A stretch of DNA of 64,000 bases from an uncultured Clostridia bacterium (GTDB lineage: Bacteria > Bacillota > Clostridia > TANB77 > CAG-508). Of this stretch, positions 4,479 to 63,273 are shown piece after piece (within the stretch, counting starts at the first letter, position 1; every line of letters begins with the position of its first letter). The DNA is taken from contig CANQPK010000001.1 of assembly GCA_947625685.1 (NCBI GenBank), positions 36,535 through 100,534 of the forward strand, written 5' to 3'. The notes beneath the pieces were generated by a model, which was given only the letters and a program-made list of their open reading frames with translations, did not search any database and was not told the DNA's origin. The position numbers and the translations under genes were made by a program.

Positions 4479-4958
4479 TCATCCATGCTCTAATACCAAC
4501 GTAAACGTTGACAAGTCATCACCTGCGGGGTATACATATACCCTCTTGCCGATGCACACATTGTAATTGCTGTTAATTTCTGTCAATACATCACTATAGA
4601 AATTGATGTATTCACCCTGCTGATTTACAATCTGCGTACCAATGATCCCGTCATTATTGTAGAAATATATATCCCAGGCTTCCGCCTGACCGTTTGCGTA
4701 GGCAAACTGAATGTTTGCCACGCAAGTGCTTTGATTATAAGAACATGCAGTATCTGTTATCGGCTCTAAGGGGTCAATGTTCATGATGAAGTCCACAGAT
4801 GAAATTGACCGATGATAATAATCAAACTCATTAAGGTTGTCAGCTGTCTTGACATACGGTGTGACCTCTTCTGCTATATTGTCCTCCTGCCGAGTAGTTG
4901 CAGCAATAATTATAAACAACATGACGAGAACAAGCACGATTGCGATAACTTTCTTCAT
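4479..4958 (-). CDS. hypothetical secreted or N-anchored protein; compositionally foreign (~43% GC versus ~27% background)
   Basis: The real start is probably MKKVIAIVLVLVMLFIIIAA at 4956-4958 with a GGAGG RBS; the track ORF begins upstream. N-terminal hydrophobic signal or anchor. GC counted by eye on a 92-nt sample. Confidence 0.55.
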   Translation of the reverse strand: MKKVIAIVLVLVMLFIIIAATTRQEDNIAEEVTPYVKTADNLNEFDYYHRSISSVDFIMNIDPLEPITDTACSYNQSTCVANIQFAYANGQAEAWDIYFYNNDGIIGTQIVNQQGEYINFYSDVLTEINSNYNVCIGKRVYVYPAGDDLSTFTLVLEHG

Positions 4959-5134
4959 TTTCAATGTACCTCCATTTTTATAGTTGTCTTTCTCTATATT
5001 GTAAACACCAAAAAGTAAGAGGAGCATTCCTCCACTAATCAGTGGTAAAACGGAATTAATTATATTATAATAAGCACTTGGCTTAGTATAATATAATTAT
5101 ACCATATTTTATGTAAAATTACAAATTTGTTCGC

Positions 5135-8100: not shown

Positions 8101-9115
8101 CACCATTTTTTATTTTTATAGCACCAAATTCTGTTATTTTTTCCGTTCTATACGAAAGTCCTGTTGTTTCTATGTCTAACACACAATATTCTGTATCTAG
8201 TTCTTGATTTTTAGAATTATATACACTAGTTTGTCCATCTGGAACTAAGTATGCCTCAACTCCATATATAACTTTTATATCATTATTGTTATCTTCTACA
8301 ACATGATTTGCTGCTGGAAAAGATTGAACAACACCATGGTCTGTTATTGCAATGGATTTCATTCCCCACTTTCTTGCTCTATTTATCAAATCAACTACAT
8401 CACTTACTCCGTCCATTTGACTCATTTGTGTATGCATATGCAATTCTACTCTTTTTTCTTTACTCCTGTCCATTCTTATATCTTCTGCTTGAGCTTCAGC
8501 TTCTAATATGGTTCTTGCAATTATTGTTACTTCCTTTGAATATGGGTCATATTGTGCATTTCCAATGACGGTTATTCTTGATGCAGAATTAATTCTATCT
8601 AACACTTTGTCTTTATCTTTTGCTTCAACAAATGCTTTGCAAGTTATTGTTGAAGTTCCATCATATACATTAAGCATAAATAAAAATTTGCCAGTTTTAA
8701 GTTCGCGTATATCTTTTTTTATAACTTTTCCAAGAATCGTAACTTTTCCAGTATCTACTGCTACATCTTTTACTTTTATTATTTTATCTGTTATTCTGGC
8801 TTTTTTGTTTCCTATTATAACATTTGAAGTTACATCTTCTGTTTCTGCACTTTTTAATTCTTTTATGTCTTTTTTGTTTTTCTGTTCATTTACATCAATA
8901 TTTAGTTCTACCTCTTGAACTCTAAATTTATTTTTTAAATAAAATTCAAATGCTAATTTTTCACCAATTTGTATATTATTGTTAGATTTTAATTCTATAA
9001 TTAATTTATTAGATTTTTTTAGAAGGCTCACTTTTATAATTTGACATTCTAAAATGTGCCCCTTTTCATCATAATCTTTAAATACATCTTTTACCAATTT
9101 TATTTCTTCTGTCAT
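5135..9115 (-). CDS. polC: DNA polymerase III PolC-type (Gram-positive replicative polymerase); frame interrupted three times as assembled
   Basis: The 938-aa ORF 6299..9115 carries the OB fold, PHP domain (HMHTQMS) and exonuclease domain. It continues in ORF 5329..6189 ([14 protein letters not shown]..., KAHAVAYV) and ORF 5135..5326 ([11 protein letters not shown]...[10 protein letters not shown]). Removing single C residues at minus-strand CGG sites restores [57 protein letters not shown] and GEFISKQD. The plus-strand sites are 6340-6343, 5352-5355 and 5270-5273. Confidence 0.9.
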
Positions 9116-9141: not shown

Positions 9142-10168
9142 TTACTTTATTATTAACATTGCATCTCCAAAGCTAAAAAATCTATATTTCTCTTTTACAG
9201 CTTCTTCATATGCCTTTAATATATATTCCCTTCCTGCAAATGCTGAAACTAACATAAGTAATGTGGATTTAGGTAAATGAAAATTAGTTATCAAGCCATC
9301 TATACATTTAAATTTGTAACCTGGATATATGTATATACTTGTATCATCTTCACAAGGATGTACCATACCGCTTTCATCTGATATACTCTCTAATACTCTG
9401 CAAGATGTTGTTCCAACTGATATTATTCTTTTATTTTGCTTTTTTGCATTATTTATCTTATCTGCCTCTTCTTTCGTTATATAAAAATGTTCTGAATGCA
9501 TTTTGTGTTCTTCAACATTTTCTTCTTTTACTGGTCTAAACGTCCCTATTCCAACATGAAGTGTTACTTTTGCAATTTTAATACCTTTTGCCTCTATTTT
9601 GCTCAAAAGTTCTTCTGTAAAATGTAATCCTGCTGTTGGAGCCGCTGCTGAGCCATCATATTTTGCATAAATTGTTTGATATCTATCCTTTTCTTTAAGC
9701 TCTTCATGTATATATGGTGGAAGTGGCATAAGTCCTATTTTGTCTAATATTTCATTAAAGATGCCTTCATAAGTAAACTTTACTTTTCTTGTTCCATCAG
9801 CTAAAATATCTAAAACATCAGCATTTAATATTCCGATCTCCAAATGTAACCTTAGTTCCTGGTTTCAATTTATTCCCTGGTCTTACAATACATTCCCAAA
9901 TATCTCCTTCAAGTTGCTTTAATAAAAGAAATTCTACATTTGCACCTGTTGATTTTTTTCCATATAATCTAGCTGGTATTACCTTTGTATTATTTATTAC
10001 AAGACAATCTCCTTCTTCTAAATAATCAATCACATCTGAAAATATTTTGTGTTCTATTGTTTGTTTTTTAGTATTTAATACCATTAGTCTCGACATATCT
10101 CTTTTTTCTATAGGCACTTGTGCTATTAATTCTTCTGGTAAATCATAATCAAAATCTGTAACTTTCAT
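9142..10168 (-). CDS. queA: S-adenosylmethionine:tRNA ribosyltransferase-isomerase; one +1 break as assembled
   Basis: N-terminal ORF 9818..10168 ([17 protein letters not shown]) plus C-terminal ORF 9142..9843. Removing a C at gatCggaata (plus 9832-9835) gives the contiguous [14 protein letters not shown]. Confidence 0.85.
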
Positions 10169-23679: not shown

Positions 23680-25387
23680 TTACATTTTATTAGGCATTTT
23701 TATTCCTAATATTCCAGCACCTTTTTCAAGTATTTTATTTGTCATATATGTTAGATATAGTCTGCTATTTGCTATTTTTTTATCATCTACTAAGATTTTA
23801 TGATTATTATAAAAAACACTATAATTTTTTGCAAGTTCTATTAAATATTTACTAAGTAAATATGGTTCATTTTTTTCAGTAACACTTATAAGTATATTTT
23901 CAAAATTATAAATATTTTTTATAACTTCTATTGCTTCATCATCAAGTAAGTTATTAACATCAATTTCATTAGCATCAATTTTGTTATTTGCTCCATCTAA
24001 TACACTTTTAGTTCTTACAAACATATATTGTATATATGGACCAGTTTCGCCCTGAAAATTTAAAATAGTATCCCAGTCAAATGTTTCATCTTTTATTCTA
24101 CTATTTGATAAATCATTAAAAATTATTGCTCCAATTCCTACCTTCTCTGCAATCTCATCTTTATTTTCAATATTTGGGTTCTTTTCTTCTAGGATCTTTC
24201 CAGCCCTTTCAATTGCTTCTTTTAATAAATCTTCAACCTTTATAACATTTCCTTCACGAGTAGACATTTTACCAGATTTTAAATGTACCATGCCATAAGA
24301 AACATGCTCTAAACCATCTATATATTTTTGATCTAGTCCAAGTAACTTTGCTACTTCAAAAATTTGTTTAAAATGTAAGTTTTGTTCATAAGCAACTACA
24401 TATAAGCATTTATCAAAATCATAAGTCCTTGCTCTATAAAGTATTGCTGCTAAGTCACGAGTTGCATATATGCTTGAGCCATTTGATTTGCAAATTATAC
24501 AAGGGGTCATTCCCTTATCTTCTAAATCAATTATTTTTGCCCCGTTTGATTCTATAAGTTTGCCTGTACTTTCAAGTATATCTATAACTTCTTGTAGCTT
24601 GTCAGCATAAAATGCTTCACCATTTAATGAATCAAACTTTATATCTAGCAAATCATATATTTTATTAAACTCTTTTAAACTAAGTTCTTTTAATTTATTC
24701 CAAAGAGTTACTTCATACTCTTGTTTTTCTTCTAATTTTTTAAAATTATCTCTGCATTTTTCAAGTACAGTTTCATCTTTTTTGCAAAGTTCATTTATTC
24801 TTACATATATATCTGTTAAATCTTCAATAGGATTTTTAAAAGTATATTCATCACTCCAAAGTTTATATCCTTCTATCATTTTTCCAAATTGAGTTCCATA
24901 ATCGCCAAGATGATTAATTCCGAATAGTATTATATCCCAAATATTTATATGTATTATACAAAGCGTTGCCTATTAATGTAGTTCTTAAGTGTCCTATATG
25001 AAAAGGCTTTGCAATATTAGGTGATGAATATTCAACTATAATATTTTTTCCGATACCTATATCTGATTTTCCATATTCACCATCTTTTTCATTAAATTCA
25101 TCTATAACAGTTTTAACTAAAGCATCTTTTTTTACGAAAAAGTTTAAATATCCACCAACTACTTCTATTTTATCAATTAATCTATCATCTATTTCTATCT
25201 TTCCTTTTATTTCTTCAGCTATCATTTGTGGTGACTTCTTCAAAACTTTTGCAAGCCTAAAACAAGGGAAAGCATAGTCCCCTTGTTCTTTTTCTTTTGG
25301 AGTTTCTATTCCAATTATTAATTCTTCGTAGTTCAATTCTACTGCTTTTGCAATTTCTTTTGCTATAACCTCTTTAAAGTCAATCAT
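23680..25387 (-). CDS. argS: arginine--tRNA ligase; one +1 break
   Basis: N-terminal ORF 24914..25387 (PNIAKPFHIGHLR, i.e. HIGH) and C-terminal ORF 23680..24879 (KMSTREG variant of KMSKS). Joined by deleting the C at attCggaatt (plus 24919-24922), giving [22 protein letters not shown]. Confidence 0.88.
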
Positions 25388-25440: not shown

Positions 25441-26575
25441 TTAATCTCCTAACGAAATTCCTATATTTCTAGCAGTTTTTACTAGGTCATCATCCATTGT
25501 AACTCTTCTTAAATTACTCTCTTTTGTATTTCCAGAAACTGCACCTATTTCTTTATTTTTACCTACTACTTTTTCTAGTGGAACTGAACTTAACTTTCCA
25601 TTTTTCATAACTACCAAAACTCCAAATTTTCCTTCTAATGCCAATTCCATTGCCTTTGTTCCATATTCTGTTGATAGTACTCTATCATAAGCTGTTGGAG
25701 TTCCACCTCTTTGCATATATCCAAGTGTTGTATTTCTTGCTTCCAATCCTGTAAGTTTTTGAAGCTCTTGTGCAACCTTTTCTCCAATTCCACCAAGTTT
25801 AGTATTATCTACTCCTATTCCATTATCTCTTACATCTTTTACAGTTACTGTTCCGGTCTTTTGGAACTGCACCTTCTGCAACAACTACTAAGCTGAATCT
25901 TTTGCCTTTCTTTATTCTTTCTTTAATTTTCTTTGCTACCTTTTTTAAATCAAATGGTATCTCTGGGATTAGTGCTACATCTCCTCCACCTGCAATTGCA
26001 GACTCTAATGCTATCCAACCTGCATATCTTCCCATAACTTCTAGTACCATTATTCTATGATGCGTCTCTCCTGTTGAGTGAAGTCTGTCTAATGCTTCCA
26101 TTGCAACAGATACGGCTGTATTATATCCAAATGTTACATCAGTACAAGCAACATCATTATCTATTGTTTTTGGAACTCCTATTACATTTAATCCTTTTAA
26201 ATATAGATCTCTTGCTGACTTTTGAGTTCCATCTCCTCCTAATGTAAATATGCAATCAAAGCCATCCTTTTTAGCATTTTTTACACATACATCTGATAAG
26301 TCTTTATAAACTGTTTTTCCGTTTTCTTCTACTTTATAATTAAATACATTTGCATTTGTAGATGAACCTATTATTGATCCACCTTTATATAGAATTCCTG
26401 ATGCATTTGTATAAGAATCAAGTTTTATATAATTGTTTTCAAGTAATCCCTTATATCCTTCTATATATCCATAACATTTAATCCCATTTAATTCTGCCAT
26501 TTTTACAATTCCTCTAATAACAGCATTAAATCCTGAAACATCTCCACCATTTGCAAGTATTGCAACTTTTTTCAT
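25441..26575 (-). CDS. pfkA: ATP-dependent 6-phosphofructokinase; one +1 break
   Basis: MKKVAILANGGDVSGFNAVIRG ... TLGGDGT. ORFs 25823..26575 and 25441..25884 overlap, and a C inserted before GG lies at plus 25852-25855. Confidence 0.8.
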
Positions 26576-35464: not shown

Positions 35465-36130
35465 ATGAATCAAATTATATGTACTAATCATTCAAATATA
35501 GAATTTGCAGATAATTATTTTAAGAAAAAGCATTTATTAAAACTTCAATTTTATATTTTAACCTTTATCGCAATTGTTCTTATTTTATGCTACATGTGCT
35601 TTAGATACAATTTGTATAAGACCGAAAAATTCTCTGCTGAATTAATAGATAATTTTAATATTTCTAAACTTTATTCAAATAATTCTAATTATACAGCAAA
35701 CCTAATTGATAAAAATATATATTTTTATGAAGGAGATACTTTTTCGGTTATAGGTATAATAAAAATTCCTAAGATAAATATAGTTTATCCAATATCATCA
35801 GAAATAAGCAATAAATTACTAAAAGTTGCTACTTGCAGATTTTATGGTCCTAATCCAAATGAAATTGGCAATCTTTGCATAGCAGCTCATAATTATAAAA
35901 ACTCATCCTTTTTTAGTAATTTATCAAATCTTACAAATGGTGATTTAATAACTATATATGATTCAAGCGGTAATTCTTTAGATTATATTGTATATAATAC
36001 TTATAAGTCAGCTTCGACAAATTTAGATTGCATAAACCAAAATACCAATAATAAGAGGATTTTAACTCTCGTTACTTGTAACACTTTTGACAATCATTAT
36101 AGGACTATTGTAAAAGCCGAATCAATGTAA
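35465..36130 (+). CDS. sortase family transpeptidase
   Basis: N-terminal TM. Catalytic His (AAHNY), the sortase TLxTC signature LTLVTC and a downstream Arg. Confidence 0.75.
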   Translation: MNQIICTNHSNIEFADNYFKKKHLLKLQFYILTFIAIVLILCYMCFRYNLYKTEKFSAELIDNFNISKLYSNNSNYTANLIDKNIYFYEGDTFSVIGIIKIPKINIVYPISSEISNKLLKVATCRFYGPNPNEIGNLCIAAHNYKNSSFFSNLSNLTNGDLITIYDSSGNSLDYIVYNTYKSASTNLDCINQNTNNKRILTLVTCNTFDNHYRTIVKAESM

Positions 36131-36201: not shown

Positions 36202-36564
36202 TTATACATTATAATCTCTAACTTTTTTATAAGTATATATTGCAGCTACAACACTTGCTCCAATAATTACCCACATAATTGTATCATCTACTCCTGTTTT
36301 TGGTAAAGTTCCATTTGTGTTATTTCCTGCTCTGTTAGTAGTTCCTATTGTGTTTATTATATTAGTAGTATTATTTGCTGTGTTGTTTCCAGCTGTATTG
36401 CTGCTATTATTTAATTGATTTATTCTAGGAATATTATTATCATTACCTGTAGTTGGTAATTGATTTAAATCAACAGTAGATGCAAAGTTTATTGTTGATA
36501 TACAACATATTATAGCAACTAAAGCTATCATTACTAATGTTTTACTTAAACTAATCTTTTTCAT
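36202..36564 (-). CDS. small N/T-rich sortase substrate carrying two LPXTG motifs (LPTTG after the signal peptide; C-terminal LPKTG + TM + KKVRD sorting signal)
   Basis: Signal peptide, NQLPTTGNDNN, low-complexity N/T/G linker, then LPKTG with a hydrophobic stretch and a charged tail. Confidence 0.7.
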   Translation of the reverse strand: MKKISLSKTLVMIALVAIICCISTINFASTVDLNQLPTTGNDNNIPRINQLNNSSNTAGNNTANNTTNIINTIGTTNRAGNNTNGTLPKTGVDDTIMWVIIGASVVAAIYTYKKVRDYNV

Positions 36565-36662: not shown

Positions 36663-37926
36663 TTATAACTTTTTATCATTTTCTGTATCTTCTTTTATAA
36701 AATCTATTTTGCTATGCTTTGAAATAGGCTTGTCGCTCTTGCCATTTCTATATGTTGTTATTCCAAATCCAATAGCAACTCCGTGTAGTTATTAATATAG
36801 TAGAATATAGTATCATTACAGCACCATACTTACTCCATAATTCACCTATTTTAGATGTCTTCGTTTCTTCCACTATAGTATTTTGTGTTTCGTCTTGTGC
36901 CTCTAATTGCATTTTTGTTACTTTTATTTTATATTCTACAGAAGTCTCACCTTTAGTTAATTTTATAAGTATAATATTTTCGCCTTCAATAAGACCTGTA
37001 TTACCTGTAATTTCTATTTTAGCTTCTGGATCATTTGAAACTGCATTTACTTTTAATTCAGTTAAATCAAAGATATATGCAGAATACTCAAATAAATCTT
37101 CTCTAAAATCTGGTGAGATCTCTACTCCCTCTAATTGAAGAGATGTAAGCTTTAGTTCTTGTTCTTGTTTTTGTTCTTCATTATTAGGTTCATCAGGTAA
37201 ATTTGGTTCTTCTACTTCTTCTGCAAGTTTTACTACTGTAATTGTATATGTTTTTGTACTTCCATTTTCTGCTGTAACTTTTAAAGTAAATTTATTAGTT
37301 CCTGTTTTTAAATCTTTCGTTCCTGTACCTGAAACTTTTGCTTTTGAATTATTTACTGTAGCACTTATTTTTATTGATGAAGTACTACTACTTACATTAG
37401 GTGCAGTAATATTTGTACTTGGTTTTGAATAGGTTTTACCACCAACTGTAATAGATTTTAGTGTTGCATCTGATGATTTTGAAGAATTAGCGTTAGAAGT
37501 TTTTTCTCCTGAGCTACCACTGGAGCTTGGCGCTTTAACTGTTATCTCGAAAGTTTTTGATAATGAGAATTTTCCTTCATCATATCCAGAAGCTGTATAT
37601 GATTTGACGGTAATTGTTGCACTTCCAGCTTGTTTTGCAGTTACTGTATAGCTTCTACTATCTGTTTTTTCATATTCAGTATCAAACTCATCTTTTGATG
37701 AACTAACACTTACTATATTTGGATTTGAAGATGTTATTTCATATCCAATAAAACAATTTGTTGCTGTAACTGTTAATTTCGTAGTTTTCCCTACTTCTAG
37801 GTTAGTTGTACCTATGCTTGCGGATGCACTACCTTTAGCTGCATATATTTTCATTTGAGCAGTAGTTGTAAATATAACTACTAAAAATAGTATTAAAATT
37901 GCCTTATATAATATCTTTTTATTCAT
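36663..37926 (-). CDS. cell-surface protein with Ig-like and cadherin-like beta-sandwich domains and a C-terminal TM anchor; one +1 break near the C-terminus
   Basis: Signal peptide and repeated beta-sandwich modules (KSITVGGKTYSKP..., LTSLQLEGVEISPDF...). Deleting the C at acaCggagt (plus 36780-36783) gives the TM helix ILYSTILITTGVAIGFGITTY plus a basic tail, with the stop at 36663. Confidence 0.6.
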
Positions 37927-37954
37927 TAATTTTTCTTTCCTTTCATTTTAAATT

Positions 37955-39631
37955 TTACTTACATTTTGTTAAATATTTATTTGCAACATAACCTGTCGTT
38001 CCATTTGCTCTTTTTATTTTAGCCCAATTATATCCATCTGCACTTCCAGCATTGAAATTTTCTACTGTTACCACTTCATTAAATGAAAGTGTACCAATTG
38101 AACTTGCAGATGTAGTTGGATCACTTCTCAAATTAACTCCAGTACCATTTATATAATATGATGTGTCTTGATTTGGATCAATTGAGCCTGGTAAACCGCA
38201 CTTACTTGGCATATCATTAAATACTGGAATAATGAAATTTAATGTTACATTTAGCATATTGTTATTTGCGTATGTGTTATATAATGTCTTTGCTTGACTT
38301 GCTGGATCTTCTATATTTGTCATGTATTGATGTGAACAAACTCCATTTTTGCCTTCATCTACTACATCAAATTTATAAAAGTATGCTGTATTTTGTCCTA
38401 CACTTACATATGAGTTTGCCATAAGTTTTGCACCTTCTACAATTGATATGTATTGATTATTCCATCCTTTATCTTTTGCATATTTTAATCCATTTGCAAT
38501 AGCATTTCCTGAATCATAGGCTCCATAGTTAAAGAAGTTATAATATCCTTCATATCCTGGATAAGTTCCTGTAACTGAGTTGCTTCCTTGTCTTCCTACT
38601 TCTTGGAATATTTTTATTGCTATACTATATGGGCTTATTCCACTTTCTTCTGCTGCTTTCATTATTATTTCTGAATATGACATTGTTTCTACTTTAGTTG
38701 ATGATAGTTCTATTTTAGATCTTCCTGCAATAAAATTTTTAAGTCTAATATAGTCAGTTGCTTCAATGGTATTATCTATCAATGTATCAGCGGCTAATTC
38801 TTGTGTCTTTGACAATTTAGTTCTTCCTGCAATTCTATTTTTTAACCTTATATAATCTACAGCATCTATATTACCATCACTATTTATATCTCCTATAGTT
38901 ACTATTGTGTATGTTTTATTATTTGAACTGTCTATAAAAATATAATCTGTGGCAACATTTGTTGAATTAGAGATTTCTTTATTTGATGAATCTTTTATCT
39001 TATATTGAGATATATTTAAATTATTAGCGATATCTTGAATTTTATTCCCTGGTGTTGCTAATATATATTCTCCGCTAATCTTTGCTTTAACAGAAGTATC
39101 AGCTTTACTTCCAGCTAGAGTAACTGTTTTATCCATAAATGAGCCTTTTAAGATGCTATCTACTCCTGCTTTTGTATGTACTGATGAGTTGTATGTCATC
39201 TCTAAAAATTGAAACACACTAGATTCTGTCAAAAAGTTTCTAGGATCTGCATAATATTCAATGATTGCCTGTGATGCACAAGCATAACTGCTTTCTATTT
39301 TCCCACAGTCATCTTTCCATAAAGAATTTGAAGATTTATGCACTGTATTTCTCAAATGTGTGCTTGTTTCTTTCGATATGAAATCTTTCCAAGTCATTCC
39401 TGTATTAAATGCTGTAAATGTCCAATTTGAATGTAATTCTTTTAGTTCATTTAAATAGCTTTTATAGCTTTCAGGGAAAGCATCAATTCCTTGTTTTTTT
39501 TCTTGTTTATAGGTAGTTGCTGCATAACTTGTATTTACACCAACTATTATATTAAATATCATTGCTAAAATTACAATTAAAAGTAATTGCATAGATAATA
39601 TTTTTTTCATAAAAAGTCTTTTTACCTTCAT
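37955..39631 (-). CDS. peptidoglycan hydrolase: GH73 glucosaminidase domain + two dockerin-like Ca-binding repeats + C-terminal SH3b
   Basis: Signal peptide. DINSDGNIDAVDYIRLKN and DNTIEATDYIRLKN (dockerin type I-like repeats). GH73-like YNFFNYGAYDSGNAIANG. C-terminal SH3b (YVANKYL). Confidence 0.65.
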   Translation of the reverse strand: MKVKRLFMKKILSMQLLLIVILAMIFNIIVGVNTSYAATTYKQEKKQGIDAFPESYKSYLNELKELHSNWTFTAFNTGMTWKDFISKETSTHLRNTVHKSSNSLWKDDCGKIESSYACASQAIIEYYADPRNFLTESSVFQFLEMTYNSSVHTKAGVDSILKGSFMDKTVTLAGSKADTSVKAKISGEYILATPGNKIQDIANNLNISQYKIKDSSNKEISNSTNVATDYIFIDSSNNKTYTIVTIGDINSDGNIDAVDYIRLKNRIAGRTKLSKTQELAADTLIDNTIEATDYIRLKNFIAGRSKIELSSTKVETMSYSEIIMKAAEESGISPYSIAIKIFQEVGRQGSNSVTGTYPGYEGYYNFFNYGAYDSGNAIANGLKYAKDKGWNNQYISIVEGAKLMANSYVSVGQNTAYFYKFDVVDEGKNGVCSHQYMTNIEDPASQAKTLYNTYANNNMLNVTLNFIIPVFNDMPSKCGLPGSIDPNQDTSYYINGTGVNLRSDPTTSASSIGTLSFNEVVTVENFNAGSADGYNWAKIKRANGTTGYVANKYLTKCK

Positions 39632-39854: not shown

Positions 39855-41712
39855 TTATTGATTGATATATTTTAGTATTCCTCCTGCTTCATTTTCATAA
39901 ACAATTTCAGCATTTTCTGTTAAAACATCCTTATAGTAATTATAGAAATACCCACGATTAAAATATATCATATAGTCTACTTTTCCTGCTCTTTTTCCAA
40001 CATACATCATCTTTATACTTAACTTTCTTTCTCCGACTATATTTTGGTTCATCATTATTAATCCTTTGTAGTATTGAATAAGCCCAATAACCTTGTTCTG
40101 GATTACCAGCCACTTCAATTAATCTATCCTCTGATATATTTTCTTTTGCATATTTTAAGATTTCTATTTCTTCTTTTGTCAAATCTTTTGGACTTTCTAG
40201 AAGTATTTTTTTATTTGCTACATAAATATCAGTCACTTGTAATGCATTTTCTTTTATATTTTTTATTTCATCTGTTATCTCCGTATTTCCAAATAATAAT
40301 GTAATAATTAAAATTACTATATATGCTACAATACATATACTTGGTATATATCTACTCTTTTCATATGTGATAAGCAATCCCTTATATGTTAAGTAAAATA
40401 AGAATAATGATAATGCAAAATAGTTTTTACTTAAATAATAGTCTGATACTTTATCAAATTTATTACCTATAAAAAGTAAAATTATAAATAAAATATTAAA
40501 AATTGTCATTAATGCAACTGCCTTATTTTCTTTCCAATTTTTCCATATAGCTATTATTGAATAAGGCAATAGTAAAATCATGTTAGAGAATAAATTTATA
40601 TATATGTATCCTTCAACTGCAAATTTTTCATTTATTAAATTATCTGAATTTTTAAATAAATTTGATAGGTCTATGGTCCTTGATATTATTATTCCATATA
40701 TACTATATTCAATATTATATATATATCCTAATGCAAAAGGTAATAATAATGTAACGAATAAAATAACAAATGTTTTTTTAGTGAATAATTTATTTTGCCT
40801 TTTATATTCTTCATAGCAAAAATAAATCCATAGAGCACTATATACATAAGGTACAAACATATAGTAAGCATTAAATAATCCAAAATTTAATAAGAAAAAT
40901 ACCAGTAGATTATGTTTGTATGTAATTTCTTTTTTACGATAGATATCTACGCTAGCAATAATTGCTTCTAGTATTAAAATTCCCATACTGAAATATTCAA
41001 ATCCAAACAAGAAACTATTTAATGGATATCCCATAGTATACAATAATGAAACAATAAATGCTAAAAATCTTATTTTGTTATTTTTTGCAAATCCTGCAAG
41101 TGTGCTATAAAACATGTATGCAGTTAAAAATAATACAAAAATTGCAAATCCTATGAATATGTTGTAATTATAGAATGAACTAGTTTCATTACCTGAACAG
41201 ATTTTCATAATAAGTCCAGAATTTACATATGACAATATTTTTTTGGTGCGTAAAGATACTCCATATACATCATCTGGATGAGACATCATAAGTAGTCCAT
41301 TTCCATCTGCAAATTTTTCTGATGTTAAATAATGCACAGATGGATCTCCTGTTTCATATTTAATTTCAAATGGAAAGCCAAAATTTATATATGCTACAAG
41401 TAGGCAAGCAATTCCTAATATAGCAATATACAATATATCTATCTTTTGAATTTTATAGCTTTGTATTTTTTTAGTTTTTATAATATAAATTGATAATATC
41501 ACTATAAAAACTAAATTTATAATACTTAAAATTAGTAAAGTAATTGGAATAGTGAAAAATGTTAATACATAACATATAAATGCATTATAGCAAAAAAGTA
41601 ATATAAATCCTAACGCAATTTGCTTTAATATATCTATTTTTTCTTCTGTTTTTCTTATCAATAGATAATTGATAAACAGTATAATTAGTGTTATACAATA
41701 AATAATACCCAT
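39855..41712 (-). CDS. large polytopic (~14 TM) membrane protein with an extracytoplasmic C-terminal domain, possibly a YfhO/GT-C-like glycosyltransferase; one +1 break
   Basis: ORFs 39958..41712 and 39855..40118 overlap. Deleting the C at agtCggaga (plus 40032-40035) joins them into a ~618-aa protein. Confidence 0.5.
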
Positions 41713-41960: not shown

Positions 41961-44596
41961 TTATTCTGTAACTTCCACTACTTTTAGTGTAACATCTTTA
42001 TAGGTAACCTCACCAGCTTCATTCAAATATGGGGCATGAACTACTTCAGTCTTTTCGGCAGATAGTTTACCTGTTACAAACTGTTCTAGTCCCTTTAGAG
42101 GTGAATCCAAAGCAGCAAATTTTCCTTTAGAAATAACTGCTGAAGCTGTACCTGACACTGAATATAAACTTATTATAGGAAGATTGTTATTGCAACAACT
42201 TATCATTCCTGTAGTATTGACGGACAACGTTCCATTTTCCCCGATGTCCATACTGGTGCTATTGGTATTCCATGCATAGAGTGATGAATTATCGGAGAAA
42301 TCCATATGTCCATATACGCCCACATTGCAACATAACACACTGTCCCCCTGGATACTCAATAAAGAACCCGGTTGGACAGACGCGCCGTGGCTACTCATAG
42401 GATTGCTCGTACCTAAGAAACTTTTACCTAGCACCGTGACGTTAGCCGTGTGGTTAGTAATACCGACAATCTAGTACCCTGTCAACCCCGTAAATGTGAG
42501 TATCTAAGATTTGAACTGGAGTCGAAGTCTCAATATGTAGTGGAACATCTATATTTGACTTGAATGTCGATCTTTCTACCTTCAAACTACTCGTATCCAT
42601 CATTTTTATACCATAGGCCTTCCCAGTGTTTTCAAGATTGGAATCATATATTTCCACATTGTAATTTCCGTCACAGTGTAATGCACTACCTTTTCCCGCA
42701 ATTACTTTTGCATTTTGTAGTTTTAATGTTCCATCTCCTCCTTTAATACTTATTGCTGTATTTTTTGTTGATATACTTGCACCTGTAATACTTACATTTG
42801 CTGAGTGTCCTTCATCATTTTGATAGATGTTTATTCCAACCATTCCATCAATTGTAACACCTTTGTTTATAGTTAATTGTCCCGGACTACGCCATGATAT
42901 AACCCCATTGTCATTCGTTGTCTCTTCTACATTTCTTAGTAATGTTTCTCCATTTATTGTTAATGTCTGCCTATTATCTTCATACTTATCACTAACGATA
43001 CAATTTTTGTTTGATTTAGCATATATTTTTGAGTTTGTAATCGTTGCATTTCCCATTCCTTGCAAGCGAAGTGCTCCGCATACTAGATACATTAATTGTT
43101 GAGTCAGTTATAGTAAGATTTGAAGTGTAACCATGTTGCAAAATAACAGCGTGGCCTGCTGTTTGAATATTTACTGCTCCTTCTATGTTTATATTTCCTC
43201 CATACGCAGTCATAAACCACTTTGCTGCTTCAGATACTATGTTTCCTGGACCTTTTATTGTAAATGTTCCACTATTTATAAGTATAAGTCCGTTGCGGTC
43301 CTCAGAATTTTGAAAATTTTCTGTTGCTTCTATTTTTAATGTTTTGTTATTTGTATCTATCTGTATTGTTTTTGCTATTTCAAATGATGTTGCAAATACT
43401 TCTGTTACATCTTTTTCTAATACTATAGTTCCTCCTCCAAATTCTCCTCCTTTATCTATCGCGTCTTTATATGCTTCAGAAAGTTTTTCATAATATATTT
43501 TTTTGCCATTATTACTTATACTGTAATTTGCTTTTGCTAGAACAATTTTTATATTATCTACTTCACTTTCATTTCCTGCTTTATCTACTGCTTTTACTAT
43601 TATTGTATATTCATTATTTTCGTTTAAGGCTGTAAATGTACAGTCTGCTGATGCTTGTTCTGTTTTATTGGCTATTACAGCCTTTTCCTGTGGTTCTCCT
43701 TCTCCTTGTAATGCAAATATTATCTTTGCTACTCCACTTTCTTCTTCTGGTTTGTCTGTTGGTGCTATTCCATCTTTTGCTATAGCTTTTACTGTTATAC
43801 TATTTGTTGTTGTCTCTGTTATTTGTGAAGTTGGTTGATCTGGTGCTACTGTGTCTATTATATTTATTTTCTTTGTTGCTGTTTTTAATATTTCTCCTAT
43901 ATTATTTTTTACTCTTACAATTATTACTCCATTTGCTGTTATATCTATCTTGCTTCCTTTTATATAGTTTGTCCATCCTGTTTGTGCTTTTGGATCTTTG
44001 GTATATTCTACAATTAGTCCTGATAAATCTTCTTCTGATACATCATTTACTGTTATTGTTGCATGTATTGGTATTTCATGTGTCCACTCATTTTTGTCTA
44101 GTTCTATAATTATACTTCCTTCTTTTATATCTGGTAATGGTTTAAATCCTTCTCCTTCTCCTACTTTTCCTACATTTTTGACATCTTTTTCAGTTACATA
44201 AAATACATATCCTTCCTTTGTTACTACCCTTAATTTTTCTTCTCCTTCTCCTGTATCTCCTATTATCTCTGCTGATCTCATACCTTTGAATTGTTCTGAT
44301 TCTTCTACTCTCTTTTTAAATTCTTCTAGGTATGCTCTACCTTTCAAATCATCAAATATTTGTTTCTCTGCTAATACTGCTCCTATTTCTACTAGCCCTT
44401 CTCTATATTCTGCTATCCTCATATTTTCTGCTGCCTCTTGTGTCATTTGAAATAATCCATGGTCTCCTATTACTGCTCTTATTCCTATTGACGCTAGTAT
44501 TATTAGTATTATTATTGTTATTATTAGTGCTATTAGTGTTATTCCTTTTTCTTTTATTGTGCCTATATTATCTTTTCTCTCTTCTTTTTTACTCAT
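41961..44596 (-). CDS. locus-1 large secreted protein (~875 aa): prepilin-like N-terminus (KG-ITLIALIITIIILIILA), FN3/Ig-like repeats, parallel beta-helix-like region and a Cys-rich, GC-rich C-terminal domain; two +1 breaks
   Basis: Three track ORFs (43016..44596, 42454..43092, 41961..42434) join when the C is removed at atgCggagc (plus 43075-43078) and tgtCggtat (plus 42462-42465). The N-terminus resembles a class III/type IV prepilin leader but has Ala at +5. It is a paralogue of 60665..62611. Confidence 0.6.
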
Positions 44597-44619: not shown

Positions 44620-45084
44620 TTATTTACTTAATTTGAAGTCATATGCATTTGCATAGTCTAATGCTGTACTTACATTTAATTCTGTACTCTCTCCTGGCTT
44701 TAATCCTTCTATATATGCTGGTATTGTTGTTATCTCTTTTCCTGTATTATCTATTAGCGTTATATTGAATACTGCTGTTTGTACTGCACTAGTTGTATTT
44801 TTTACTGTTCCTAATAACACTGTGTCATTTTCTCTTTCTGTTAATTGTAAGTCACTTATTTCTAATCCATCTAACATTTTTGTCTTATGTAGCTGTTCAC
44901 TTGTGTTTAATTTTGTTTCATCATCTAAGACATCTACAAATTCTTCTACTGGTGTATTTGTTTCATTCCCTCCTGATTGGTTTTCATTTTCTCCTTTGTT
45001 TCTTGCTAGTAGGGTTATTCCTCCTATTATTAATACTGCGACAATAATTAATATTATTATTTTTTTTCTCTCTGAATCTTTCAT
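44620..45084 (-). CDS. locus-1 small N-anchored membrane protein (paralogue family A1/A2/B2)
   Basis: 154 aa. One N-terminal TM, then a ~120-aa domain with the conserved LDGLEISDLQL ... TVLLGTVKNTT ... ITLIDNTGKEITTIPAYIEGLKPGEST. Paralogous to 62650..63180 and 60079..60633. Confidence 0.6.
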   Translation of the reverse strand: MKDSERKKIIILIIVAVLIIGGITLLARNKGENENQSGGNETNTPVEEFVDVLDDETKLNTSEQLHKTKMLDGLEISDLQLTERENDTVLLGTVKNTTSAVQTAVFNITLIDNTGKEITTIPAYIEGLKPGESTELNVSTALDYANAYDFKLSK

Positions 45085-45465: not shown

Positions 45466-45502
45466 GCAAAAAAAGAGCTGATTAATTTTTTAATCAACTC
45501 TT
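45466..45502 (-). terminator. rho-independent terminator of lysS
   Basis: AAGAGCTGATTAA-ttttt-TAATCAACTCTT (one mismatch) followed by a T7 run on the minus strand. Confidence 0.75.
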
Positions 45503-60078: not shown

Positions 60079-60633
60079 TTAATTCAATAACTGTCTAGTT
60101 ATTTGTATTTTGGTTGCTTTAGTTAAATCTTGTATATCACTTGTTTTAAGTTTTGTACTTTCTCCTGGTTTTAATACTGGTATATATGCTGGTAATTTTG
60201 TAATTATTTTTCCATTCGCATTTATTAACCCTACATCTAGAATAATTCCTCCTTGTTCTTCTTGGGTCTTATTTGTTACATTTCCTACTATATCTGTCAA
60301 TCCATTTTTATAATTTAAATCTATTCCGCTTATTTCCATTCCTTCTATTGTTTTCGTATCTAATACTTTTCCATCTGAACTAATCATAAATTCATTTGTT
60401 TTTTCTTTATTAATTGTGTTTTCGTTATTATCTTTATTTTCTTCTGGATTTTTTATATTATTTGAATCACTTGCTAAAGTATTTAATTCAACATTGTTAC
60501 CTTGTGTATTTTCTTCACCTTGAGCAAGTAATGTTTCTTTTTCATTATTTATACCTAAAATATTTAATGCAACTATTATAACTATTCCAACCACTATTAA
60601 TATTATTATTCCTTTTTTCTCCGAATCTCTCAT
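60079..60633 (-). CDS. locus-2 small N-anchored membrane protein B2 (paralogue of A1/A2)
   Basis: 184 aa. N-terminal TM and the conserved C-terminal domain (GMEISGIDL ... GKIITKLPAYIPVLKPGEST). Confidence 0.6.
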   Translation of the reverse strand: MRDSEKKGIIILIVVGIVIIVALNILGINNEKETLLAQGEENTQGNNVELNTLASDSNNIKNPEENKDNNENTINKEKTNEFMISSDGKVLDTKTIEGMEISGIDLNYKNGLTDIVGNVTNKTQEEQGGIILDVGLINANGKIITKLPAYIPVLKPGESTKLKTSDIQDLTKATKIQITRQLLN

Positions 60634-60664
60634 TTTACTCTCCCTTCTTTAGTTTAATCCTATA

Positions 60665-62611
60665 TTAATCATGTGCTACACCGCCATAGTTGTGCGCGCA
60701 GTAATAGTGACCATTGTAGTAACCATGACCACAGTTGTAACGACCATATGAGTGAGCAGAAGTTCTACCATGTTCGCATGTCTCCGTAACTGTATGAGGA
60801 GATGTGTTTCCGTGTGAACATGGACTTGTTGTAGTCACAGTATGCGCACTCATGTTACCATGTATGCAAGGTGAGTCTATTGTATGTGAACTAGAGTATC
60901 CATGTGGGCAGGTTTTGTCGTAGAAACCGTCATTGTTGTGGTCAGGACCAGGGCAGTGATCAACACGTCCTCCAGAGCATTGGGTAGTGGTAGTTGTACC
61001 ACCAGGACAAGTGTAAGAACTTCCTCCACTGCACCACTCAGAACCTCCCCCACTACAGTACTTCGTCGTTCCTGTACATTGTGTTTTTGCTTTGTTATCT
61101 CTTTTAGTTGCTGTATGATTTACTGTGTCTGTTACTTCTACATGATATGTATAATCTGTGTAATTAGATAATCCTGTTACTTCTAAATCTATATTTTTTC
61201 CTTGTGCTTGATTCTCTAGTGTCCTTTTTGGTGTTTTTTCAGCATCTATATATACCTTGTATGTTAGTTTTCCTTGGTCTGCTGCATCTGGATCTGTTGC
61301 ATTTACTCTTATTGTAAGTGTTGTTGGTGTTTTGCTTGCAACCGATACACTGTTTATTACTGGTGCTACATTTGCAAGTGGTAATACTGCATCTGCATTT
61401 GCACTTTTTCTTAGGTTTTCTGCTTTGTCTACTGCTTCTACATATACTTTGTGTGTCATTCCATCTTTTTGGTTTGTTGCGTTATATGTTGCACTTGTTG
61501 ATTTGCCTAATACTAATTTTCCATCTATATAATAATTATAATATGCTATTCCTGATTCGTTATCTTTTGCTGAACTTGCATCTATTGTAAATGATGTTGG
61601 TTGTATATTTTTTATTACTGGTGTAAATTCAATTGGTTTATCCAAATCTACTATTGTCACTGTTGCAGTGTTTCCTGAATAGTTATATCCATCTGTTAAT
61701 CGTGCTTTTACTGTATATCCTAATTGTAAATTGTCTATTACCTGTCCATTTTCTATTGTTATGTCTTTTCTTCCATTTACTATACTTCCTTTTTCGTCAT
61801 ATACATCATATTTTACTGTATAGTTATCTTGACTTGTCTTTTTTATTACTACACTTGCTATTCCATTCTTCCATGTTGTATTCTCAAAGTCTAATTCTCC
61901 CTCTCCATATTCTATTACTTTTGTTCTTGCTTCTGCATATTTTTCACTTGTTCCGTTTTTATTTGTTGCTTCTACTTTTATTGTGTATATTTTATCTTGA
62001 TCTAGTCCATCTATTGTATAGCTTAAATTTTCTGTTCCTGTTATTGCCTCTTTATATTCTCCTGCTTCTCCTATTGCTCCTTCTTTATAGTAGTATGCAT
62101 ATGTTGCTCCTTCTCCTCTTTTTACTGTTATGTCTGCTTTTATACTTCTTGTTGTTGCTGTTAATTGTAGTTTTACTATTTTTACTGTTAAGTCTTCTGC
62201 TTTTCCTTCTACTTCTACATGGTCTACTTTGCTCTTATCTTCTTCTGTTGGTACTACTCTTGCTACCCATCCATCTGGTGTTACTACTTCTTTACTTCCA
62301 TCTTCATTTTCTACTGTTTCATTTGGATCTATTACGTCTTTCTTCTCTAATTCTTCAATGTATTCATCCATTGTTGGTTCTCTTCCCTCTTGTCCCGCCT
62401 CTGCTGTTACTGTAGCTTGAGGTATTACAAATCTTTCTTCTACTTCTCCTACTTGATATGAATCTGCTGCTCCCTTTGCTAGATCTAATAAGTTACCTGA
62501 TCTTAATGTACCTATTGTTACTATTGATAATATAATTAGTATTATTATTGTAATTATCAAGGCTACTAATGTTATTCCTCTTTCTTTTTTCATATCTTCC
62601 TTTCCTTTCAT
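60665..62611 (-). CDS. locus-2 large secreted protein (648 aa): prepilin-like N-terminus (RG-ITLVALIITIIILIILS), FN3-like repeats and a C-terminal Cys/His-rich tandem-repeat domain
   Basis: Paralogue of 41961..44596; the N-terminal TM region is nearly identical. The C-terminal ~140 aa contain about 6 degenerate C-x-H-G-x(3-5)-H-T repeats (CPHGYSSSHTIDSP, CIHGNMSAHTVTTTSP, CSHGNTSPHTVTET ...). GC is elevated, which I estimate by eye as at least 40%, over 60665-61100. Confidence 0.6.
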   Translation of the reverse strand: MKGKEDMKKERGITLVALIITIIILIILSIVTIGTLRSGNLLDLAKGAADSYQVGEVEERFVIPQATVTAEAGQEGREPTMDEYIEELEKKDVIDPNETVENEDGSKEVVTPDGWVARVVPTEEDKSKVDHVEVEGKAEDLTVKIVKLQLTATTRSIKADITVKRGEGATYAYYYKEGAIGEAGEYKEAITGTENLSYTIDGLDQDKIYTIKVEATNKNGTSEKYAEARTKVIEYGEGELDFENTTWKNGIASVVIKKTSQDNYTVKYDVYDEKGSIVNGRKDITIENGQVIDNLQLGYTVKARLTDGYNYSGNTATVTIVDLDKPIEFTPVIKNIQPTSFTIDASSAKDNESGIAYYNYYIDGKLVLGKSTSATYNATNQKDGMTHKVYVEAVDKAENLRKSANADAVLPLANVAPVINSVSVASKTPTTLTIRVNATDPDAADQGKLTYKVYIDAEKTPKRTLENQAQGKNIDLEVTGLSNYTDYTYHVEVTDTVNHTATKRDNKAKTQCTGTTKYCSGGGSEWCSGGSSYTCPGGTTTTTQCSGGRVDHCPGPDHNNDGFYDKTCPHGYSSSHTIDSPCIHGNMSAHTVTTTSPCSHGNTSPHTVTETCEHGRTSAHSYGRYNCGHGYYNGHYYCAHNYGGVAHD

Positions 62612-62649
62612 TTTTTTATTTTTACTTTGTTTTTTATTCTTGCTTTTCT

Positions 62650-63180
62650 TTACTTGAAGTTACTTATCCTTATGTCATATGCATTTGATACATCTCCTGA
62701 TATTGATACGTTTAATTTTACTTTCTTTCCTATTTCTATTGGGTCTATGAATCCCATTGCACTTGTTATTACTTTTCCTTCTTTATCTAATATTTCTACT
62801 TTTATTTTTTTCTCTGTTGTTCTTCTTGTTGTTTTGTTTTCTACTTCTGCTAATAATGTTGTCATTTTTCCTTTTTCTTTTTCTTTTAATTGTATGTTGC
62901 TTATTTCTAGTCCATCTAATGTTTTTGTTTTTGCTACTTCATCACTTATATTTAATTTGCTACCATCCTCTAATACTTGTACATATTCTTCTATTTCTTC
63001 TTTTGGATCTGTTGTTGTTTGATTTTGTCCTTTTCCTATTTCATTTCCTCCTGTTTGTCCTGAAGCTATTTGCTCATTTTGTGATTTTGCAGCTACTTTT
63101 ACAAATATGTTTAGTCCGACTATGATTGCTATTCCTACTACTAATAGTATCAATATGTTTCTTTTCTCTTTCCCTGTCAT
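62650..63180 (-). CDS. locus-2 small N-anchored membrane protein A2
   Basis: 176 aa. TM, then KTLDGLEISNIQL ... TTLLAEVENKTT ... VITSAMGFIDPIEIGKKVKL. Same family as 44620..45084. Confidence 0.6.
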   Translation of the reverse strand: MTGKEKRNILILLVVGIAIIVGLNIFVKVAAKSQNEQIASGQTGGNEIGKGQNQTTTDPKEEIEEYVQVLEDGSKLNISDEVAKTKTLDGLEISNIQLKEKEKGKMTTLLAEVENKTTRRTTEKKIKVEILDKEGKVITSAMGFIDPIEIGKKVKLNVSISGDVSNAYDIRISNFK

Positions 63181-63226: not shown

Positions 63227-63250
63227 GGGCACACAAAACTTATACTTTAA

Positions 63251-63273
<23 letters not shown>
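63227..63273 (-). terminator. leader hairpin + U-tract (attenuator-like) of locus 2
   Basis: On the minus RNA, GGACACACAGGACUUAUACUU-aauua-AAGUAUAAGUUUUGUGUGCCC is followed by UUUUGUUAUAUAAAAU. It sits between the leader ORF and the A2 RBS. Confidence 0.55.

Follow-up and report, generated by a model that had tools for sequence, protein, structure and literature searches.

Modular pilins, of which PilB and PilC of Streptococcus sanguinis are examples and which were surveyed by Raynaud et al. 2021 (PMC8179133), carry domains grafted onto a short N-terminal pilin module. They occur in monoderm bacteria, fibronectin type III (FN3; IPR003961) is a common graft, and they are presumed to bind ligands at the cell surface; their class III signal peptide is canonical and passes IPR012902, a glutamate is retained at position +5 (Glu5), and their genes belong to pil operons. 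In a filament, Glu5 neutralises the neighbouring subunit's N-terminus; subunits that lack it (the K-type minor pilins and S. sanguinis PilA) are located at the very tip of the filament and cannot accept a subunit above them (PMC9934059). In archaea, class III signal peptides are also used to display proteins that are not pilins (PMC3047682). Here we analyse a 64,000-nucleotide stretch (the window) of contig CANQPK010000001.1 from an uncultured Clostridia bacterium, in which two cassettes each combine a gene for a large protein bearing a Glu5-less, pilin-like leader with one or two genes for a small membrane-anchored beta-sandwich protein. The two families exist and are tightly linked neighbours, the leader is related to that of pilins with conserved positions -1 and +5, and leader genes are scattered through genomes, unlinked to pilus genes.

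The large proteins of the window share the N-terminal segment (K/R)G-ITL(I/V)ALIITIIILIIL, and a BLASTP comparison detected no significant similarity between them beyond this leader, which is compositionally masked. An earlier note on this DNA, made by a model from the letters, had described the same combination of a near-identical N-terminus and a diverged remainder. To obtain position statistics, sequences were aligned with an anchor on positions +6 to +18 only, leaving -4 to +5 free; 66 open reading frames (ORFs) from genome loci and 93 from metagenomes were included. Position -1 was Gly or Ala in 62/66 and 90/93 ORFs, respectively, position -2 was Lys or Arg in 46/66 and 72/93, and positions +1 to +3 were Ile, Thr and Leu. 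At +5, Ala was found in 50/66 genome-locus and 83/93 metagenome ORFs, and Glu in 0/66 and 1/93, confirming across the family the Glu-to-Ala replacement that had been remarked on in the window. The consensus K-G/I-T-L-I-A-L-V-I-T-I-I-V-L-L-I-L-A-G-V-S-I (the stroke separates -1 from +1) lines up residue for residue with the alpha1N helix of pilins.

A profile built from 24 N-terminal modules (N-modules) was searched against all PDB sequences. The best match was S. sanguinis PilE1 (E = 6e-5; 84 residues aligned, reaching into the amphipathic helix), followed by geopilin (3.8e-4), MshA (7.7e-3) and then PilA; all matches were pilins or archaellins, except for a weak one to an intermediate-filament protein (E = 0.2). 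Twenty-two of the 24 family members matched the Pfam model N_methyl (PF07963) at E <= 1 (best 5.2e-5), mostly below its gathering score, and the IMG label of one homologue (P0023) includes 'Tfp pilus assembly protein PilE'. With the profile match to solved pilins, the sub-threshold N_methyl matches and the conserved Gly/Ala at -1, the likeness to a class III signal peptide proposed in the earlier note is borne out, and on this sequence evidence we treat homology to the pilin N-terminus as established. Residues 7-146 of large protein 2 were modelled with AlphaFold2 (pLDDT 81.5): a helix (6-31) is followed by a break at the conserved G-E-N-G, a second helix (35-68), a short third one (75-84) and four strands. 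This order of elements resembles pilin topology, and a pilin fold of the globular part is plausible; a Foldseek search of the N-module against the PDB gave no match at E < 0.5.

These data bear on an explanation in which the N-terminus is never processed by a prepilin peptidase. It would be an uncleaved type II signal anchor, or else a long Sec signal peptide that signal peptidase I removes behind the A-G-V-S-I-x segment; the pilin likeness would reflect shared ancestry or composition, the large proteins would be tethered or secreted, and the small gene would be unrelated and merely co-transcribed. With small residues at +20 and +22 ([ST]-I-[NSAG]), the sequence offers what might be read as a weak signal peptidase I site, and the missing Glu5, the failure to satisfy N_methyl and the TIGR-type pilin models, the Foldseek result and the lack of a peptidase in the window all fit with this explanation. 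However, Glu5 is dispensable for prepilin cleavage itself. It serves filament packing, and the GspK-type subunits and S. sanguinis PilA are pilins without it (PMC9934059). Moreover, a generic anchor or Sec h-region would not conserve 22 residues almost without variation, with Gly/Ala at -1 and Lys/Arg at -2, across thousands of proteins whose passenger domains are unrelated, and the PilE1 profile match extends past the transmembrane (TM) segment into the amphipathic helix. We therefore regard an unprocessed N-terminus as unlikely.

The scale of the leader family was assessed with a leader profile, which, among at most 8,000 candidates, retrieved at least 6,139 clusters at 90% identity (E <= 1e-5), almost none of them named. 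The leader is near-invariant from -1 to +21 across proteins with different passenger domains and is present in all these clusters, which we take as evidence for a sorting signal rather than a generic TM segment. Sampling 80 metagenomic loci via the leader itself yielded 101 leader ORFs in 76 loci. A small protein was encoded in only 2/76 of these, both times adjacent to a leader gene, while the other leader genes were solitary among housekeeping genes (dnaJ, alaS, thrS etc.) or formed tandem arrays of up to four. With 74 of the 76 loci devoid of it, the small protein is a lineage-specific accessory, and the suggestion that the cassette is a self-contained module was not upheld.

Pilus assembly genes were sought at several scales. 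Pfam scans of nearly all sizeable ORFs in the 64 kb identified no pilus ATPase, platform protein or A24 prepilin peptidase, and a six-frame motif scan of the window counted 0 PilB Walker boxes, 0 A24 GxGDxK motifs, 0 GFTLIE-type prepilins and 0 further leaders; the earlier statement that no assembly ATPase or peptidase lies nearby thus extends to the whole window. Annotated flanks of 8-10 kb at seven loci (L001-L003 and L084-L087) contained no pilus machinery. In the approximately 1.6 Mb of flanking sequence of all loci, which hold some 170 leader genes, there was no PilB-type ATPase (three Walker motif matches were FtsK-like, ABC-type and a short ORF) and one leader with Glu5. An A24 peptidase gene lies near leader genes in three loci only, among all those scanned (L076, L144 and L149; Table 1), surrounded by HAD phosphatase, Xaa-Pro peptidase and EF-P genes and with no pilus ATPase in the flanks. 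The proposed search for a prepilin peptidase was thus successful in related genomes and negative in the window, so that any peptidase acting here must be encoded elsewhere. The three loci indicate that the lineage has a peptidase and that leader genes do not travel with pilus genes.

This distribution is difficult to reconcile with the large proteins being modular pilins of the minor class that sit at the tip of a type IV pilus or a Com-like filament, whose ATPase, platform protein, peptidase and Glu5-containing major pilin would be encoded elsewhere in the genome. On that account, loss of Glu5 would mark the first, capping subunit, the cassettes would supply alternative adhesive tips, and the small protein would help to prime assembly. 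The pilin-like leader and fold, the A24 peptidase in related metagenome-assembled genomes (MAGs) and the single Glu5-containing leader variant are what it would predict, and there is precedent both for caps without Glu5 (GspK/PilK-type and S. sanguinis PilA) and for the proposal that modular pilins sit at tips (PMC9934059, PMC8179133). However, neither PilB, PilC nor a major pilin was found beside any of the some 170 leader genes in the roughly 1.6 Mb of flanks, whereas characterised minor pilins are normally encoded in a pil or com operon. Many Glu5-less paralogues per genome, seen as three or four cassette loci in one MAG and as tandem arrays of three or four, are also hard to square with one cap per filament, and the GENG break falls inside what should be a continuous alpha1 helix. 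We consider tip pilins as unlikely an explanation as an unprocessed N-terminus.

The Glu5-containing variant (KGITLIELIVTITILLIL, in locus L138) was the only one among the 101 metagenomic leader ORFs, and it could represent either a candidate major subunit or a connection to canonical pilins. Short leader proteins (100-240 aa) were also considered as stand-alone pilins and rejected, because those examined in their genomic context (P0156 and P0249) are fragments of split larger genes; a major pilin is therefore not claimed. Two 144-aa proteins with the same leader (P0209 and P0234) are apparently complete and might be stand-alone subunits.

The three small proteins of the window (A1, A2 and B) are pairwise 38-42% identical, share the motifs that the earlier note had listed, and are matched by a single family hidden Markov model (HMM) with E-values of 1e-41 to 1e-60. 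Each consists of a TM anchor, a linker and a beta-sandwich of about 105 aa, in agreement with the N-terminal TM segment and common domain first described. In the AlphaFold2 model of A1 (pLDDT 83.6), a TM helix (3-28) and a disordered linker (29-48) precede the sandwich (50-153, pLDDT > 90), and basic residues before the helix suggest that the sandwich faces outward (N-in/C-out). No Pfam family matched the three proteins. The NCBIfam model FxLYD (NF038353, cutoff 23 bits), which covers only the last ~60 residues, was matched above its cutoff by A1 and B and below it by A2. A structure comparison, which might have placed these proteins in a well-known family of unrelated function, gave only a generic Ig-like sandwich, with no function attached to the fold matches. 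FxLYD domain proteins are among the closest known systems, together with the DUF4352/MPT63-like membrane-tethered Ig sandwiches (YjhA, 3cfu; 4les) and the SadB-SadA pair (4c47).

A word-indexed search identified 113 relatives of the small proteins, 145-177 aa in length; all are unnamed and lack Pfam domains. An HMM search of 1.84 billion representatives returned 275 members (50%-identity representatives) at E <= 1e-30, 1,047 at 1e-10 and 2,581 at 1e-3. The possibility that proteins encoded upstream (A) and downstream (B) of the large gene form distinct subfamilies was examined and rejected, as identities within and between the positional classes were 0.48, 0.46 and 0.46. The arrangement A-large-B, reported to occur twice, was recovered as two sets of genes in which A and B belong to one family and cassette 1 has no B copy.

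The association of small and large genes was followed across genomes with the small-protein alignment, scanning one genome per GTDB species. All 80 loci obtained were from MAGs of uncultured Clostridia, sampled from rabbit, human (Hadza, Nepal), deer, mouse and chicken guts. Small genes were counted over these loci, two earlier loci and the window (89 genes in total; 83 independent loci), with adjacency defined as the same strand and a gap of <= 600 bp. A leader gene lay immediately downstream of 47/89 small genes and immediately upstream of 14/89, giving 61/89 (69%) adjacent; four more small genes had one within 3.5 kb (65/89 in total) and 3/89 were at contig ends. The cassette, further copies of which the earlier note had proposed to look for, thus recurs in other genomes, and the degree of adjacency speaks against the small gene being an unrelated neighbour, as the signal-anchor explanation would have it. 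Single MAGs carried three or four separate cassettes (L006-L008; L069, L071, L074, L079), and at some loci one small gene was followed by two to four leader genes.

Small-protein distances correlated with those of the adjacent N-modules (Mantel r = 0.44, p = 0.001). N-modules beside a small protein scored higher than unpartnered ones when held out (median 39.7 versus 17.6 bits, p = 9e-7), and a V-T-x-E-G-Y-x-F-x-V-T hairpin motif was present in 15/54 partnered and 0/76 unpartnered N-modules. N-modules adjoining small proteins are a distinguishable subtype. A literature search found no paper containing the leader motif strings or the FxLYD name.

The pairing is real, and mere local duplication is effectively refuted. 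The two copies do lie within 18 kb of each other, and the large genes show domain shuffling, as might be seen after a local duplication or in prophage or mobile-element cargo without wider significance. Against this, the paralogues retain only 38-42% identity, the pairing recurs in MAGs from the guts of five kinds of host, the small family comprises the 275 representatives retrieved at the strictest threshold, the neighbours are housekeeping genes, and PHROGs gave no meaningful match, so that none of the five cassette proteins could be credibly assigned to a phage family. Such an origin is very improbable.

The explanation we favour, tentatively and at somewhat less than an even chance, is that the large proteins are modular, Glu5-less pilin-like surface proteins, that their leader is a general sorting and anchoring signal, and that the small protein is an FxLYD-like, lineage-specific membrane partner. 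Each cassette would be a small operon of an uncultured low-GC lineage of gut Clostridia, and the product of the large gene a protein of the cell surface that has a divergent type IV pilin module as its base. This module would begin with a short, basic leader, its last residue Gly or Ala, and continue with a hydrophobic helix of 21 residues, I-T-L-I-A-L-V-I-T-I-I-V-L-L-I-L-A-G, in which Ala replaces Glu5; the GENG hinge, a second, amphipathic helix and a small sheet of four strands would follow. An FN3/Ig stalk and a variable head would complete the protein, the head consisting of a beta-helix in cassette 1 and of Cys/His repeats in cassette 2. The pilin-like helix would take the protein into the membrane, and an A24 peptidase, of the kind encoded elsewhere in the genomes of relatives, would probably trim the leader after Gly/Ala. 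Thereafter the protein would remain membrane-rooted, with its head extending across the wall, and would not be built into the body of a filament as a polymerised subunit. The small protein, a predicted bitopic N-in/C-out protein with an FxLYD-like Ig sandwich, may be the cognate partner (holder, chaperone or co-anchor) of one module subtype. We infer physical contact between the small and large proteins, membrane retention, leader cleavage, and adhesive or enzymatic roles of the heads.

What commends a sorting and anchoring signal is that leader genes are many per genome, scattered, never beside pilus genes and uniformly Glu5-less, features that fit poorly with one cap per filament and better with a general signal of the kind known in archaea (PMC3047682). 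Several observations weigh against it. N_methyl scores are below the gathering score of 21.2 bits for both window large proteins (for large protein 2, 13.0 bits at full length and 16.0 bits for the N-module), and no NCBIfam match of TIGR02532 type was obtained. Canonical pilins do not have the conserved GENG break that follows the TM helix here. No recognisable leader gene was found beside 21/89 small genes, several of which adjoin large-gene fragments without a callable leader. The Mantel and N-module subtype tests are confounded by shared phylogeny, and the search for A24 peptidase and PilB/PilC in the window's own genome covered 64 kb only.

Set beside the known systems, the large proteins share with modular pilins the order of an N-module followed by FN3/Ig, beta-helix, Big_2 or other domains, the pilin module itself being non-canonical. 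The earlier note had recognised neither family; the small proteins are now placed at the NCBIfam FxLYD threshold, and the large proteins within the modular pilin concept (PMC8179133). In contrast to modular pilins, they have Ala at +5 and Ile at +1, do not satisfy N_methyl and carry the GENG hinge after the TM helix; their genes lie dispersed between housekeeping genes and, within this lineage, are accompanied by a gene for a small beta-sandwich partner. Like the capping pilins (GspK/PilK-type and S. sanguinis PilA, PMC9934059), they are without Glu5, and their class III signal peptide is degenerate and escapes standard tools; GspK likewise carries an extra domain. Capping pilins, however, occur one per system and are encoded with I/J/H or PilB/PilC partners and assembly genes, whereas here there are many paralogues per genome and no partner pilins nearby, and similarity is limited to the hydrophobic helix. 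In the Sulfolobus bindosome (PMC3047682), a pilin-type signal peptide also displays non-pilus proteins on a single-membrane cell with no need for Glu5, and archaellins are weakly matched by the N-module profile. That system is archaeal, its substrates are sugar-binding proteins of ABC transporters, and it relies on a Bas ATPase and a membrane protein of its own, neither of which was found here; the parallel is an analogy of logic, not homology.

The five cassette ORFs were all present as first described, on the minus strand, which carries almost all genes of the window (about 28% GC). Their positions, with those of the other features discussed, are given in Table 1.

Table 1. Positions of cassette features, neighbouring genes and related loci (window coordinates unless a locus is named)
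Feature	Position	Strand	Remarks
Cassette 2 (small, large, small)	62650-63180, 60665-62611, 60079-60633	-	gaps 38 and 31 nt
Small protein A2	62650-63180	-	176 aa; HMM E = 2e-50; FxLYD_dom 21.9 bits; low-complexity linker
Large protein 2	60665-62611	-	ORF 648 aa; likely start Met7 (62593), giving 642 aa
Leader of large protein 2	62513-62593	-	MKKERG + 21-residue hydrophobic helix ITLVALIITIIILIILSIVTI, Ala at +5
N-terminal pilin-like module of large protein 2	62192-62611	-	~140 aa
FN3/Ig-like repeat stalk of large protein 2	61097-62191	-	sub-threshold: fn3 21.8 bits, Big_7 19 bits; NCBIfam OmpL47-type domain 22.4 bits
Cys/His-rich C-terminal region of large protein 2	60668-61096	-	12 Cys, 14 His; no family match
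Small protein B	60079-60633	-	184 aa; HMM E = 1.2e-41; FxLYD_dom 23.5 bits; 31 nt downstream of large gene
Terminator-like hairpin	63230-63270	-	between pyrG and cassette 2; consensus scan only
Cassette 1 (small, large)	44620-45084, 43016-44596	-	large ORF 23 nt downstream of small gene; ~15 kb from cassette 2
Small protein A1	44620-45084	-	154 aa; HMM E = 1.8e-60; FxLYD_dom 25.4 bits
Large protein 1, first ORF	43016-44596	-	526 aa: leader IKEKG-ITLIALIITIIILIIL, N-module, Ig domains
Putative continuation of large protein 1	42454-43092	-	right-handed beta-helix, PF13229 Beta_helix E = 1e-7
Putative C-terminal piece of large protein 1	41961-42434	-	third ORF
Terminator-like hairpin	45473-45502	-	between lysS and cassette 1; consensus scan only
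Locally GC-richer stretch	42300-42480		junction of second and third large 1 fragments
Split essential genes	4479-9115, 9142-10168, 23680-25387, 25441-26575		
Sortase	35465-36130	+	PF04203, E = 5e-24
LPKTG protein	36202-36564	-	120 aa; adjoins sortase gene
Dockerin type I + SH3 protein and cadherin-like beta-sandwich protein	36748-39631	-	558 aa and 392 aa; just upstream of cassette 1
Polytopic membrane protein	39958-41712	-	584 aa; directly downstream of cassette 1
A24 prepilin peptidase, L076	8131-8883		PF01478 E = 3.8e-18; 2 kb downstream of cassette
A24 prepilin peptidase, L144 and L149	17315-18067		74% identical to L076 copy; 7 kb from three tandem leader genes
Leader variant with Glu+5, L138	11271-11649		
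Glycosyltransferase-type genes, L003	2737-7013		immediately upstream of leader gene
Glycosyltransferase-type genes, L108	6127-7629		immediately upstream of leader gene
Glycosyltransferase-type genes, L138	6986-8221		immediately upstream of leader gene
Glycosyltransferase-type genes, L148	10075-11295		immediately upstream of leader gene

Large protein 2 most likely begins at Met7, because this codon is preceded by a ribosome-binding site (GGAAAGGAAG), whereas Met1 has none, and the length of a 100% identical database protein (P0001, 642 aa) agrees. Of the FN3/Ig repeats attributed to the large proteins, the Pfam matches are judged real, at scores below threshold. The C-terminal region contains five C-x-H-G-x3-x-H units at residues 568-640, spaced about 14 residues apart, and looks like a metal-binding repeat; the same units occur in the homologues P0002, P0003 (up to ~10 units) and P0006 and at the C-terminus of the large protein of locus L004. 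The latter protein is 47% identical to large protein 1 over residues 30-346 and joins an N-terminal half like that of large protein 1 to a C-terminus like that of large protein 2, indicating that domains have been shuffled among large proteins. Other relatives carry Big_2 domains, Listeria-Bacteroides repeats or a C-terminal FRPxLW-type motif without family assignment. Neither window large protein ends in an LPXTG motif followed by a hydrophobic segment and a basic tail.

Large gene 1 is interrupted by a frameshift and a stop, and its pieces are overlapping ORFs on the same strand; the second and third ORFs are its probable continuation. The breakage is probably due to assembly indels, since the essential genes polC, queA, argS and pfk are likewise split into two or three adjacent ORFs each, which points to assembly errors of this kind rather than real pseudogenes. 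For polC the pieces are of 938 aa and 286 aa, and an additional ORF of 182 aa matched nothing in Pfam at E <= 1e-5; in cdsA and polyprenyl synthase the Pfam profile was matched only in part. The GC-richer stretch of large gene 1 (e.g. ccacggcgcgtctgtccaaccgggttc) stands out in a genome otherwise at 28% GC.

The genes between and around the cassettes are lysS, infB, nusA, groES/groEL and pyrG. The Pfam scan of the window also identified polC, queA, uppS, cdsA, frr, pyrH, metG, argS, pfk, dnaJ/dnaK/grpE/hrcA and genes for a MATE transporter, a glycogen phosphorylase and an LCP protein. The hairpin between pyrG and cassette 2 suggests that this cassette is a separate transcription unit; promoter scans remained at background level. 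Additionally, the window encodes a sortase, an LPXTG protein, a dockerin protein and a cadherin-like protein. The ORF adjoining the sortase gene ends in LPKTG, a hydrophobic tail and basic residues and is the sole LPXTG protein of the window, so that the organism has conventional sortase anchoring too. The dockerin and cadherin-like proteins hint at cellulosome-style surface assemblies. The polytopic membrane protein had no Pfam or NCBIfam match, and a kinship with the GtrII-like proteins encoded beside leader genes in L003 and L108 was considered and dismissed, the proteins being unrelated on comparison. At four unrelated loci, glycosyltransferase-type genes lie immediately upstream of leader genes and include GT2 and GtrII-like polytopic proteins, those of L003 and L108 being homologues of each other (E = 5e-31); this raises the possibility that the pilin-like proteins are glycosylated.

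The individual parts described here are of known kinds, namely a pilin-type leader, Ig/FN3 stalks and an Ig-sandwich membrane protein. What is new is the use of a Glu5-less leader at this scale outside pilus loci, together with its fixed pairing with a small partner, a pairing that is undescribed. A more sweeping proposal, that a large, uncultured branch of gut Clostridia uses a Glu5-less class III signal peptide as a filament-independent display signal, served only by an orphan A24 peptidase and, in one lineage, by a small FxLYD-type co-anchor, seems to us rather improbable. If true, dozens of adhesins or enzymes would be displayed on a monoderm surface by a bacterial counterpart of the archaeal bindosome logic, a new route beside sortase, lipoprotein and S-layer-homology anchoring.

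Uncultured gut Clostridia are known mainly from MAGs, and their surface attachment has mostly been guessed from model Firmicutes. The leader tags thousands of otherwise unannotated large surface proteins, which standard pilin detectors miss because Glu5 is missing. Its recognition therefore provides a simple sequence rule for a surface proteome of adhesins, beta-helix and FN3-stalk proteins, and Cys/His heads that look metal-binding. For the biology of type IV filaments, the question posed is whether a pilin module can act in bacteria, as in archaea, as a stand-alone membrane anchor or sorting tag, and the tightly linked small partner offers a new handle on it. The family is thus of relevance both to type IV filament research and to the surface biology of uncultured gut Firmicutes.

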